Shown here one piece after another: positions 895 through 57,412 of a stretch of 64,000 nucleotides of DNA. The DNA is from a virus: positions 16,225 to 80,224 of the IMG/VR virus record IMGVR_UViG_3300034351_000048. One strand, 5' to 3'. The stretch's first letter is position 1, and each line of letters starts with the position of its first letter. The notes beneath the pieces were generated by a model. The model worked only from the letters and a program-made list of their open reading frames with translations. It ran no database searches and had not been told where the DNA came from. The position numbers and the translations under genes were made by a program.

Positions 895-1644
895 TTATTT
901 TTTGTATTCTTTGGCTACTTTCTTTCGTATATATTCAAACCCTTTTTTAGTAACTAAAGTTACGGGTTTATTTCCAACTTCTTTAATCATTTTCTCTTTA
1001 ACTTTGAAATATCCAAGTTCAATATAAGGTTGTTTAGGAACATTTGAACCATTCAGCATAAACAATATCTCTTCTTCTCTTAAGAACTTGAATAATCTTA
1101 CAACTCCAATATCAATGCCTTTACTACTTAACAACTTTGCAACTTCATTCATAGTCATTAAATTTTCATCATTCATAAAATCGTCGTAAGAATTTGCTTT
1201 TGGTAAAAGAACTTGTTTCTCAGCTTCTAATTTTTCATTTTCAAGTGCTAATCTTCCAGCTTCTAAGAGGGCTTCGGCATAGGATTGTGGAATGTTATAT
1301 TGTTTTTCTTGTATTTCTTTTAATTTAAAATAACTTTTAACAAGTTTATTATACACATCCCATGCTTCGGATGTACCAATACTTTTAGCGTGTTTCAAAG
1401 CTCCTGATTCTGTCCATAAGTATATAGGTCTTTGAGAATTCTCACTATTCGAAAATTTCGAATATTCTTTATTGGACTTAGAAATAAGTATATAATCGAT
1501 GTTTTCAGTATATTGATTTTTATTATTATTGAAATTTTGTTGGATTTTTATTGGTTTAACACCATAAAATTCTGCTAATTCTTTAGTTGTTAAGACTATT
1601 TTTTCTTTATATTGTTTTTGATTTAATTTTGTTAGGTCTGTCAT
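895..1644 (-). CDS. antirepressor-like protein, ORF6N N-terminal domain + KilAC/ANT C-terminal domain
   Basis: VLTTKELAEFYG...NFNNNK...LWTESGALKHAKSIGT..AW (ORF6N); PQSYAEAL...LPKA..YD...VAK.L..G..RLFKFLRE...GYF...T.KG (KilAC). Confidence 0.85.
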   Translation of the reverse strand: MTDLTKLNQKQYKEKIVLTTKELAEFYGVKPIKIQQNFNNNKNQYTENIDYILISKSNKEYSKFSNSENSQRPIYLWTESGALKHAKSIGTSEAWDVYNKLVKSYFKLKEIQEKQYNIPQSYAEALLEAGRLALENEKLEAEKQVLLPKANSYDDFMNDENLMTMNEVAKLLSSKGIDIGVVRLFKFLREEEILFMLNGSNVPKQPYIELGYFKVKEKMIKEVGNKPVTLVTKKGFEYIRKKVAKEYKK

Positions 1645-1770
1645 AATTAGACTCCATCAACTATAAAAAACGCTCATTCACCAAAGGTAAACGTAACCAC
1701 AGCATTTAAATATAGTTAATGGATCAAAGAGGGTGGTTATTTCTCTTAAATCCATTAAAATAACTATACA
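1645..1770 (-). ncRNA. structured 5' leader, copy L1 (loop UAACCAC / bulge GUGGUUA; SD-sequestering switch)
   Basis: Hairpin 1711-1768; its 3' arm UCCAUUAACUAUA can alternatively pair with UAUAGUUGAUGGA over the SD; same architecture in four loci. Confidence 0.8.
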
Positions 1771-1775
1771 AATAA

Positions 1776-1803
1776 AATATAACATATTTATTTTAAAAGT
1801 CAA
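1776..1803 (-). promoter_or_regulatory. promoter TTGACT-N16-TATATT (TG-extended) driving leader L1
   Basis: Repeated promoter family; predicted +1 falls at the H1 5' end. Confidence 0.7.
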
Positions 1804-2093
1804 ATATTTAAGTTTAATTTTTTGAACCTCTCATCATTTATAACTTTATTTAGAGCTATTTTAAATAGCCTTGTAACATTCGATTTGTTACATTTTAAGA
1901 CCTTACTTATTCGAACATTCGAGTAATTTTCAAATACACGTAATCCGAATGCTAATTCTTGTTTTTCACTTAACTTTTCATCAATAATATCCTGAATTGT
2001 ATGCTTATTTGTTTTATCTTTGAAAAGTTGTCTTATTATATCAATTTTTTTTAATGTGCTTAAATTTTCCATGTTTTCTAACGTATTTTCCAT
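1800..2093 (-). CDS. sigma70 region-4-like HTH protein
   Basis: LSEKQELAFGLRVFENYSNVRISKVLKCNKSNVTRLFKIALNKV pattern. Confidence 0.65.
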   Translation of the reverse strand: MENTLENMENLSTLKKIDIIRQLFKDKTNKHTIQDIIDEKLSEKQELAFGLRVFENYSNVRISKVLKCNKSNVTRLFKIALNKVINDERFKKLNLNI

Positions 2094-37080: not shown

Positions 37081-37136
37081 TACTAAAAAATATTAAAGGA
37101 GATCAAATGAAAAAATTAATTTTCAATATTAGAAAA

Positions 37137-37220
37137 TGCGAAGTAAAGGAATCGAACCTTCAAGCTCTTACGAGCGGCAGATTTTAAGTCTGTTGCGTTT
37201 ACCTGTTTCGCCAACCTCGC
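37137..37220 (-). tRNA. tRNA-Leu(TAA)
   Basis: GCGAGGT acceptor, TGGCGAAACAGGTAAACGC D-arm, loop CTTAAAA, long variable arm, AAGGTTCGATTCCTT T-arm; CCA not encoded. Confidence 0.92.
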
Positions 37221-37279
37221 AAAATTACCACTTAACGTGGTAAAAACAATTTGCCAAAAAGTATTTTTATCATAATTTA

Positions 37280-39089: not shown

Positions 39090-39285
39090 TTAATATATAT
39101 TATTTATCATAGATTAATTAATTGCTTCCCATAACCTCTTTTAAAAAGAATTATGAGGAGTTGGAATTCAAAATCAATATCTTCAATAGAAGAAATAATT
39201 TGCTTTACATGCCTTTTATATGAGCTATGGTCGGAACTCATATGATAAAAATCTAAACACCTCTTAATTTTTCAAATAAAATTAC

Positions 39286-39319: not shown

Positions 39320-39442
39320 GTATAAACTAAAAATTAACCAGATTAAGATATATACCGACTTTCTTAATCTTGTTAGTTTATATGTTGTCGGTACATCCAC
39401 CTTTGGTGGGTGAACATATTTTCTAACAAGGTGATAAAAACC
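39320..39442 (+). ncRNA. structured 5' leader, copy L3 (loop UACCGAC / bulge GUCGGUA)
   Basis: AGAUUAAGA/UCUUAAUCU stem; CUUGUUAG alternatively pairs CUAACAAG at the SD. Confidence 0.8.
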
Positions 39443-47917: not shown

Positions 47918-47948
47918 TCGAAAAAACTAATTATTTATATGTAAATAT

Positions 47949-48083
47949 TTGATTTTTAAAATAATTTTATTATATTTAGTATATTACTACCTTAATATTT
48001 ATTTTATGGGGCTCATTATGTATTATGTAATGGGCTCTTATTTATAGGGTAGCAATAAAATATAAATATTGAGGTATTCAATT
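47949..48083 (+). promoter_or_regulatory. promoter plus SD-sequestering structured leader (architecture differs from L1-L4)
   Basis: UACCUUAAUAUUUA pairs UAAAUAUUGAGGUA (SD); internal 13-bp G-U-rich hairpin. Confidence 0.65.
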
Positions 48084-48854
48084 ATGCATAACAATTCTAT
48101 CCAATTATTTAATTTCCAAGAAAATGAAGTAAGAACATTTACGGATGAAAACAATAATATATGGTTTTGTTTAAAAGATATTTGTGATATTTTAGAGTTA
48201 AGTAATCCAAGAAAAGTAGCTTCCGATTTAGACAAAGACGACGTAACTATTAGTTACGTAGGGGTGAAAACAGGCGTGAAAAAGGATGGAACAGATGCTG
48301 TTCAAAATATTGAAATGAACTTTATAAATGAGAGCGGTTTATATCAAGTAATATTCAAAAGTCGTAAACTTATAGCTAAGAAATTTAGTAAATGGATAAC
48401 AAGTGAAGTAATCCCATCTATTAGAAAAACGGGTCAATACGGCATAGAGAACTTATCAAGATTAGAAATTCTTAAAATAGCATTAGATAGTGAAGAAAAG
48501 AGACTACAATTAGAAGAAGAAAACAAAAAATTGCTTCCAAAAGCACAGATTTTTGATGATTTTCTTGAAAGTATTAATACGATTAGTGTTGGAGAATTAG
48601 CGAAATTATTATGTAAAAATGGTTATAATACAGGTCAAAAAAGATTATTCAAATTTTTAAGAGAAAATAAAATTCTTATGGAAAAAGATAACCTCCCCTA
48701 TCAAGAATATATAGACAGGGGTTATTTTGAGGTATCTACTTTCATAATTAATCATACACATAGTAATTACAAAGAGACTAAACCACAAACTAAAGTTACA
48801 AAGAAAGGTTGTTTGTTTATACGGAATTTATTTATTAAAGCAACTTCTATGTAA
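48084..48854 (+). CDS. Bro-N + KilAC antirepressor
   Basis: FNF...EVRT...WF..KD.C..L.L.N, INESGLY..IF.SR...AK.F..W.T.EVIPSIRKTG.Y; KilAC C-terminus; true start 48084. Confidence 0.92.
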   Translation: MHNNSIQLFNFQENEVRTFTDENNNIWFCLKDICDILELSNPRKVASDLDKDDVTISYVGVKTGVKKDGTDAVQNIEMNFINESGLYQVIFKSRKLIAKKFSKWITSEVIPSIRKTGQYGIENLSRLEILKIALDSEEKRLQLEEENKKLLPKAQIFDDFLESINTISVGELAKLLCKNGYNTGQKRLFKFLRENKILMEKDNLPYQEYIDRGYFEVSTFIINHTHSNYKETKPQTKVTKKGCLFIRNLFIKATSM

Positions 48855-57178: not shown

Positions 57179-57300
57179 AGAATAATAGCAGAATTGGCAA
57201 ATGCCTTAATTGAGATATAATCTAATTTGATAAAAAACGATTTTGGTTATATTGAGATTAAGCCTCTTTGAGGGTGGGGGTTCAAGTCCCCCTTATTCTT
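57179..57300 (+). ncRNA. tRNA-like RNA (class II cloverleaf) with extended hairpin replacing the anticodon loop
   Basis: Acceptor AGAATAA/TTATTCT, D-arm GCAGAATTGGCAAATGC, variable arm CCTC-TTT-GAGG, T-arm GGGGG-TTCAAGT-CCCCC. Confidence 0.8.
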
Positions 57301-57301
57301 A

Positions 57302-57412
57302 TAATAGGATTAGAAAACAAGATCGTTTCTCTAATCCTGTTAGAAATATTACGATCTCGTTTGTTTTAAATTAAAAATAATTCAAATGAATATTGTCTAA
57401 CAGGAGGTATTA
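57302..57412 (+). ncRNA. structured 5' leader, copy L4 (loop AGAUCGU / bulge ACGAUCU)
   Basis: UAAUAGGAUUAGA/UCUAAUCCUGUUA stem; UCCUGUUAGA alternatively pairs UCUAACAGGA at the SD. Confidence 0.8.

Follow-up and report, generated by a model that had tools for sequence, protein, structure and literature searches.

Candidate two-layer RNA switches with seven-nucleotide addresses ahead of antirepressor-family genes in an AT-rich phage

What lies between the promoter and the start codon of an antirepressor-family gene in an 80-kb phage genome, and what might it do there? The locus that raises this question sits in a 64,000-nt stretch of DNA (the window). The parent record, from IMG/VR, is a phage sequence of 80,224 bp (26.5% G+C) bounded by 141-bp terminal repeats, and the window takes up its bases 16225-80224. 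On the minus strand, the interval 1803-1645, designated L1, lies between the stop codon of a gene at 1800-2093 and the ATG of a gene at 895-1644. A sequence-only reading had described it as a leader that begins at the promoter +1 and has an apical hairpin in common with a second leader, L3. All of the elements listed there (the promoter, two hairpins termed H1 and H2, and the SD) were found in their places, and what its title overlooked is the main point: a heptamer in the H1 loop is complementary to a bulge in H2 (Table 1). Our leading reading, held tentatively and with slightly less than even confidence, is that L1 would form the 5′ leader in the mRNA of an antirepressor-family gene, where it would act as a two-layer RNA switch with a 7-nt address.

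Table 1. Elements of L1 and of the related leaders, in window coordinates except where marked.
Feature	Position	Strand	Composition	Loop/target heptamers	Basis
L1, -35 hexamer	1798..1803	-	TTGACT; overlaps stop codon of upstream gene 1800-2093		promoter scan, sequence
L1, extended -10	1776..1784	-	TGtTATATT		promoter scan, sequence
L1, H1	1710..1769	-	hinged hairpin from predicted +1 (G1769): 5′ arm 1769-1743, 11-nt loop 1742-1732, 3′ arm 1731-1710		folding
L1, loop heptamer h′	1733..1739	-	exact complement of H2 bulge	UAACCAC	sequence, duplex energies, shuffles
L1, a′ (H1 3′ arm)	1711..1725	-	GAUCCAUUAACUAUA; partner either H1 5′ arm or SD region (anti-SD)		folding, shuffles
L1, H2	1668..1707	-	terminator-like: 7-bp lower stem, 7-nt bulge, 8-bp upper stem, UUU loop; -11.1 kcal/mol		folding
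L1, bulged heptamer h	1694..1700	-	target of H1 loop	GUGGUUA	sequence, duplex energies, shuffles
L1, U6 tract	1665..1670	-	follows H2; first three U pair with AAA of lower stem		sequence, terminator scan
L1, a″	1652..1665	-	UAUAGUUGAUGGAG, near copy of H1 5′ arm; contains SD GGAG 1655-1652		sequence
L1, controlled gene	895..1644	-	ORF6N+KilAC antirepressor-family protein, 249 aa		Pfam E 6e-17 and 1e-22; PHROG anti-repressor Ant E 6e-44
L1, whole leader	1645..1803	-	elements as above	UAACCAC/GUGGUUA, exact	
L2	36912..37308	-	promoter, tRNA-Leu(UAA), large-loop hairpin, H1 37020-36976 with loop GGGAUAA, target 36967-36961, SD, ATG 36914 of ORF6N gene	GGGAUAA/UUAUCCC, exact	sequence, folding
L3	39286..39445	+	promoter, H1 loop UACCGAC 39353-39359, H2 39380-39419, bulge GUCGGUA 39387-39393, ATG 39443 of ORF6N-DUF559 gene	UACCGAC/GUCGGUA, exact	sequence, folding
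L4	57140..57415	+	promoter, tRNA-like RNA, H1 57302-57342 with loop AGAUCGU, target 57351-57357, U-rich tract, SD, ATG 57413 of Rha gene	AGAUCGU/ACGAUCU, exact	sequence, folding
L0	genome 9594-9466 (outside window)		AntA gene	UGGGCAC/GUGCCUA, one G-U	
Lx	metagenome contig Ga0272441_10100700, locus L192 1500-1608		ORF6N+KilAC gene behind	AUAACCGC/GCGGUUAU, exact	

The predicted L1 promoter has a 16-nt spacer and scores 10/12 with a TG in the promoter scan. Genome-wide, the pattern TTGAC[AT]-N16-18-TAT[AT][AT]T occurs at 13 sites, compared with 3.2 in shuffles, and all 13 start with TTGACT; by this pattern, the L1 promoter is part of a phage promoter set. Members of the family with an extended motif, TTGACTTTTTATAAT...TAGTATATT, include those at window 778 (-), 37334 (+) and 49239 (+), and two divergent promoter pairs are present, 37308(-)/37334(+) and genome 9626(-)/9709(+). 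Because the first H1 pair (G1769/U1768) lies 7-8 nt past the -10 hexamer, H1 would start at the expected +1, a distance that suits the leader start proposed earlier. The gene just upstream ends within the -35 hexamer without a terminator, so longer transcripts could also run into L1. Its 97-aa product (1800-2093, minus strand) bears weak similarity to sigma-70 region 4 (E 8e-4) and to a sigma-factor PHROG (E 4e-4), both below the curated cut-off.

Downstream of this promoter, H1 is built from 9 bp, a 5-nt bulge, 7 bp (6-7), a 1x1 internal loop and 5 bp below the 11-nt loop 1742-1732. The hairpin is thus the one described before, except that the pairings there assigned to UAAUGGAU and UAACUAUA overlap by 2 nt, which leaves a middle helix of 6-7 bp, not 8. 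H2 reads AAAUGCU (1707-1701), the bulge GUGGUUA (1700-1694), CGUUUACC-UUU-GGUGAAUG (1693-1675) and AGCGUUU (1674-1668), and the ATG follows at 1644-1642. Three of the 15 bp in H2 are G-U pairs and, the bulge aside, there are zero mismatches; on the other strand the same positions are A-C mismatches, in line with the earlier remark that deviations in H2 are mostly wobbles. Folding of both strands gave a minus-strand minimum free energy of -32.6 to -33.5 kcal/mol (z -4.1, 0/200 shuffles as good) and a plus-strand value of -19.0 to -20.3 kcal/mol (z -2.6), with H2 not predicted on the plus strand. Across all six leaders the fold is 3.4-4.6 SD better than that of shuffles, and in four of them it is clearly better in the sense direction.

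These data bear on whether the repeats act in DNA, as an operator or a cruciform, or are chance palindromes in AT-rich sequence. H1 directly follows the promoter, where operators often sit, and many weak hairpins arise in AT-rich DNA; the G-U pairs and the energy asymmetry nevertheless point to RNA from one of the two strands, the heptamer pairs and SD copies described below are not palindromic sites, and finding an exact pairing six times independently ahead of the same gene families lies far beyond chance. We consider a DNA-level origin extremely improbable. Together with compensatory changes among the paralogues, the asymmetry and the wobbles favor what the sequence-only reading had argued, an RNA of minus polarity rather than a cruciform.

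H2 resembles an intrinsic terminator in having a G+C-containing hairpin followed by a U tract, and the terminator scan called 1693-1675 plus AGCGTTTTTT in L1 and the equivalent in L3. Counting from the base, its stem runs for 7 bp before the 7-nt bulge breaks it, and three lower-stem pairs use the U tract. Because of the bulge, the lower stem contributes only 3-5 kcal/mol beyond the upper hairpin in L1 and L3 (about 5 in L1), so that termination at H2 could plausibly need help. The apex is a 10-mer, ACCTTTGGTG, with exactly two copies in 64 kb, 1688-1679 (-) and 39399-39408 (+), which are the H2 apices of L1 and L3; by our own estimate from base composition, the chance expectation for an exact copy is about 0.03. 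The apical identity noted earlier is therefore real, as is the difference between the bulged heptamers beside it, GUGGUUA in L1 and GUCGGUA in L3. The apices of L0 (CAC-UUU-GUG) and Lx (CUAA-UUU-UUAG) differ, and thus the conserved feature is a stem with a UUU loop, not an apex sequence; the ACC-UUU-GGUG apex common to L1 and L3 is best read as paralogy.

The L1 plan is repeated in four paralogous leaders of the same 80-kb phage, three of them in the window, and in one unrelated metagenome contig (Lx). In all six cases the gene behind belongs to an antirepressor family: ORF6N+KilAC for L1, ORF6N for L2, ORF6N-DUF559 for L3, Rha for L4, AntA for L0 and ORF6N+KilAC for Lx. The ORF6N-DUF559 gene of L3 is itself followed by an ORF6N+KilAC gene, and Lx has a small UUU-loop hairpin after its target as well as an SD-region copy of the H1 arm. 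In L1, the H1 loop is AAAUAACCACC, with UAACCAC at 1739-1733, and it would pair with the bulge over exactly 7 bp, since the flanks cannot extend the helix. In L2 and L4, the loop pairing extends 4 bp further across a small internal loop and is then followed directly by a U-rich tract; given this extension and the adjacent tract, the pairing itself looks like the terminator stem there.

The heptamers differ among leaders in a compensated manner. Relative to the L1 pair, double changes number two in L3, two in L0 (which adds one G-U) and one in Lx; the heptamers of L2 and L4 are unrelated to those of L1. Cognate duplexes have energies of -7.4 to -9.5 kcal/mol, as compared with -3.4 kcal/mol or weaker for all non-cognate combinations. 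Cognate Watson-Crick runs span 7-8 nt, or 5 nt in L0, where the 7-bp pairing includes the G-U, and non-cognate runs reach at most 6 within matched 31-nt target windows. Composition-preserving shuffles of the loop attain a run of 7 in 0.2-2.4% of trials per leader, and multiplying across the five Watson-Crick leaders gives, by our own arithmetic, a joint chance of about 1e-10. Both heptamers are single-stranded in the nested ensemble, in which opening both partners costs 1.0 kcal/mol in L1 and 0.55-4.6 kcal/mol across the six leaders. Between L1 and L3, pairing in H2 is likewise kept through change: the lower stem differs by two double changes, the upper by one double change and three one-sided ones. 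Pairs were counted by hand, MAFFT having misplaced gaps for L0 and Lx in the H2 alignment. The comparison comprises five paralogues from one genome and one outside sequence, and with a single relative outside this genome the covariation rests mostly on paralogues. Genome-wide heptamer counts were near expectation, with no clear extra target set.

A second set of complementarities involves the ribosome-binding region. In all six leaders the SD region copies the H1 5′ arm in part, so the H1 3′ arm can pair with the SD region instead. This anti-SD pairing is worth -11.7 to -18 kcal/mol in the six leaders, and shuffles as good were found in 0/1000 trials in five of them and in 16/1000 in L3. Both components of an SD-sequestering switch are present, an anti-SD segment and an alternative partner for it, the H1 5′ arm. 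In RNAfold predictions of the full leader, L1, L2 and L3 each have two conformers 1-2 kcal/mol apart, one with H1 and H2 and the SD free, the other a long hairpin around H2 in which the SD is buried. L0 has its energy minimum in the masked form; in L4 and Lx, H1 is the dominant structure. Since H1 is far more stable than the anti-SD pairing in these last two, masking may not operate there.

Long hairpins with internal loops are the usual look of phage RNase III sites, and the alternative fold, at about 28 bp, is a hairpin of this kind. The leader might accordingly be a processing or stability element, a long irregular helix of the H1 3′ arm and the SD region around H2 that would mainly set mRNA half-life. 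We regard such a role as highly improbable: it leaves the covarying loop and bulge heptamers and the U tracts unexplained, and in L4 and Lx a fold other than the long helix is the stable one.

The two-layer reading that we prefer would work as follows. Transcription would first yield H1 with UAACCAC in its loop and then the weak terminator H2 with the bulge GUGGUUA; the 7-bp loop-bulge pairing would stabilize H2, and most transcripts would stop at U6 with a length of about 105 nt. In those RNAs that read through, the H1 3′ arm would exchange its 5′ partner for the ribosome-binding region, masking the SD. The 7-nt pair would serve as an address, such that each of the six leaders would recognize only its own terminator, and with such private codes the five leaders of one phage would not cross-react. 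The codes would also let a terminated RNA act in trans on nascent copies of its own leader, in the manner of P1 c4, P4 CI and IsrK.

The pairing competes with neither H2 stem, so its sign, for or against termination, cannot be read from the sequence. We prefer a termination-favoring pairing because H2 is a weak, bulged terminator and because L2 and L4 have a terminator-stem layout. Two points weigh against attenuation: a fully paired 7-nt bulge must kink H2 and might weaken the terminator, and a genome with 26.5% G+C has many runs of U4-U6. Moreover, if the loop always paired in cis, no regulatory input would be evident, which speaks against a switch; any input signal is, like the trans action, something that we infer.

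Were the sign reversed, the H1 loop, once docked on the H2 bulge, would be an ON-lock. It would kink H2 such that the lower stem could not form in the RNA exit channel, leading to read-through, and it would hold H1 closed with the SD unmasked; without docking, the outcome would be termination or a masked SD. This is unlikely, although several features agree with it: the SD is free once H1 has formed, prefix folds indicate that H1 is the first to form as the RNA is transcribed, H1 is the stable state in L4 and Lx, and a fully paired 7-nt bulge without an opposite linker would be geometrically incompatible with coaxial stacking of the H2 stems. What tells against it is that the pairing in L2 and L4 lies directly before a U-rich tract, as a terminator stem would, and that the functional relatives, P4 CI and the plasmid attenuators, pair to cause termination.

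Alternatively, L1 could be a constitutive promoter-proximal terminator cassette, comparable to lambda PR′-6S RNA-tR′, at which a phage antiterminator or another protein would grant read-through and the pairing would only shape the RNA or a protein site, with no regulatory code. Consistent with such a cassette, the regulatory genes are preceded by a short structured RNA that lies between a strong promoter and a terminator, and a small sigma-70 region 4-like protein is encoded just upstream of L1. Nonetheless, six different, exactly compensated 7-nt pairs are hard to fit with one protein reading all leaders, the promoter is the sole sequence element common to all of them, and no Q/N-like antiterminator was identified; we judge this explanation quite unlikely. 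Four further candidates were discarded. T-box-like tRNA sensing would involve UGGN, which occurs only in the L1 bulge; the small ORFs in L1 and L3, as possible leader peptides, lack conservation as well as an SD; H2 as the terminator of an upstream operon does not suit L0 and L2, which lie at divergent promoters without an upstream gene; and a further leader candidate at 34933-34899 (-) lies inside a coding region and is probably due to chance.

Searches for relatives returned Lx and little else. Rfam gave only tRNA matches at gathering score in the whole window, and no relevant model, including C4 (RF01695), IsrK (RF01394) and sRNA-Xcc1 (RF02221), matched any of the six leaders at E<=10. The L1 region had no blastn match among GenBank phages. 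Protein-seeded searches of IMG/VR with Ant, the portal protein and the Lx Ant found nothing, and a search there with ORF6N-DUF559 found only distant ORF6N genes from which the leader was absent. Four DNA-pattern designs, run over IMG/VR, metagenome contigs and genome contigs, yielded matches that were chance or coding except for Lx, the one true relative among >220 matches to a pattern built on the H1 stem common to L2 and L4; such scans reach sequence-similar relatives only. The closest Ant homologue of the L1 gene product in a protein-database search is 45% identical, and the region upstream of the ORF6N-KilAC gene of Fusobacterium phage Fnu1 contains no such leader. Among the sequencing runs listed, this DNA occurs in two DNA metagenome runs, from which it may derive, and in no RNA run.

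The L1 element looks like an undescribed variant of the RNA switches of P1, P4 and Gifsy-1. As in C4, IsrK and sRNA-Xcc1, all six leaders lie on the same strand before an antirepressor-family gene, and all six have a loop complementary to a downstream site on the same transcript. A C4-type target overlapping the ribosome-binding site was not found, the L1 target being the H2 bulge 1700-1694, 39 nt upstream of an SD that is covered by the H1 3′ arm. By sequence, the six leaders would form a small and apparently undescribed family of coded leader switches, analogous to phage antirepressor RNA controls without detected homology to them.

In Salmonella prophage Gifsy-1, the IsrK-orf45-anrP locus (Hershko-Shalev et al. 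2016, PMC4825925) yields a terminated sRNA, IsrK, and by read-through a longer mRNA that leads into the antirepressor gene anrP but is silent in translation; two conformers exist. The likeness lies in a promoter-proximal small RNA with its own terminator, an antirepressor mRNA that is silent on read-through because part of the leader pairs downstream, two near-isoenergetic conformers, and a same-strand RNA acting on its own mRNA, which in the leaders here is predicted. Unlike IsrK, these leaders have no sequence or covariance-model similarity to it and no orf45-like coupling ORF, and their contact is a 7-nt loop-bulge pairing in a terminator rather than a helix of about 30 nt with an upstream ORF. 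The P4 CI RNA pairs with seqA/seqC and causes premature termination (PMC4825925); a leader-derived RNA pairing with short sites on a nascent transcript to that end is what we propose here. CI differs in that it targets one upstream and one downstream site of the seqA/seqB/seqC set, is a processed RNA and controls replication genes, not ant, and no homology to it was detected.

In P1, synthesis of Ant is repressed by c4, an RNA that acts in trans (PMC8546580). The P1/P7 immI c4-icd-ant system (Rfam C4, RF01695) also has a structured RNA co-transcribed upstream of an antirepressor gene and short loops complementary to downstream sites, and between P1 and P7 the specificity of c4 is set by loop sequence. 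It differs in having two loop/target pairs, a target that covers the icd ribosome-binding site, and Rho-dependent polarity, whereas the present leaders have one heptamer and, as target, the bulge of a terminator-like hairpin, match no C4 model, and belong to an AT-rich genome. The c4 antisense RNA of P1/P7 immI was reportedly described by Citron and Schuster in 1990 and 1992.

Other attenuators offer looser parallels. In the T-box, pairing of an external RNA with a 7-nt bulge stabilizes the bulged helix and decides termination, much as proposed here; that helix is an antiterminator and its partner is the tRNA 3′ end (4 nt), whereas in the present leaders the U tract belongs to the bulged helix, which would pair with a loop of the same leader (7 nt). 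UGGU was found in L1 only (L0 has GUGCCUA and L3 GUCGGUA), and there was no Rfam T-box match. In the pT181 and pIP501 attenuators, alternative leader folds decide an intrinsic terminator before a regulatory gene, and recognition begins by loop kissing; those plasmid antisense RNAs are fully complementary counter-transcripts, in contrast to the 7 nt on the same strand that here spare both terminator stems. The zipper-type attenuator of pLS20 also lets alternative leader folds determine whether an intrinsic terminator forms upstream of a regulatory gene, but its long complementary flanks remove the terminator that the 7-nt pairing here spares (PMC13401043).

Several features of the neighboring leader RNAs are of interest in their own right. 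A tRNA-Leu(UAA) gene at 37136-37221 (-) lies about 115 nt upstream of the L2 H1 on the same transcript, and a 122-nt tRNA-like RNA at 57179-57300 (+), matched by the Rfam tRNA model but not detected by ARAGORN, ends immediately before the L4 H1. The c4 RNA is processed by RNase P, which these genes ahead of H1 in L2 and L4 recall; tRNA processing could help to free the leader RNAs. Between tRNA-Leu and H1 in the L2 leader, a 12-bp hairpin (37074-37029, -) has a 26-nt loop that contains ACGAUCU at 37057-37051 and also ACCACC, similar to the L1 loop. ACGAUCU is the exact L4 target heptamer, and the hairpin is thus a possible decoy tying L2 transcription to Rha expression; that one of the six extra genomic copies of ACGAUCU should fall inside a leader has, by our own estimate, a chance of roughly 2%.

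Upstream of L3, the segment 39062-39285 (+) holds a second consensus promoter (TTGACT-16-TATATT with TG), 224 nt before the L3 promoter, and a possible 30-codon ORF. The transcript from this promoter would include a hairpin at about 39219-39249 whose loop contains GGUCGGAA, a 5-6-nt mimic of the L3 target GUCGGUA. A different arrangement precedes the Bro-N+KilAC gene at 48084-48854: in its leader (47945-48087, +), 15 nt close to the 5′ end would likewise mask the SD by pairing with the region around it, one of the pairs being G-U, two direct GGGCUC repeats flank a small hairpin, and no loop/target heptamer pair was found. Upstream of Lx, L192:1190-1345 (+) carries two copies of a repeat of about 30 nt (GTATCAAAAATTACCGGGATT.TAATAAAATT).

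Taken further, the phage may carry a multi-channel riboregulator set, of an origin independent of C4, IsrK and sRNA-Xcc1, in which each antirepressor-family gene would be gated by its own leader-derived small RNA through a private 7-nt loop-bulge code. We put this forward as possible but doubtful. Decoy hairpins in other leaders could wire such channels into a cascade, as with the L4 target in the L2 leader loop.

Antirepressor-family genes are dangerous when expressed at the wrong time. To our knowledge, the antirepressor controls that have been studied (P1 c4, P4 CI, N15 and IsrK) are few, and all are leader-derived RNAs of enterobacterial phages. An uncultured, AT-rich mangrove phage would have arrived at the same logic from unrelated parts, a loop-bulge pairing in a terminator and a ribosome-binding site that copies the hairpin's own 5′ arm. 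This would be relevant to phage decision circuits, to co-transcriptional RNA folding and to synthetic attenuators. If true, swapping the 7-nt code should re-address a switch, a compact and testable design, and the five differently coded copies in one genome would constitute a natural orthogonal set.
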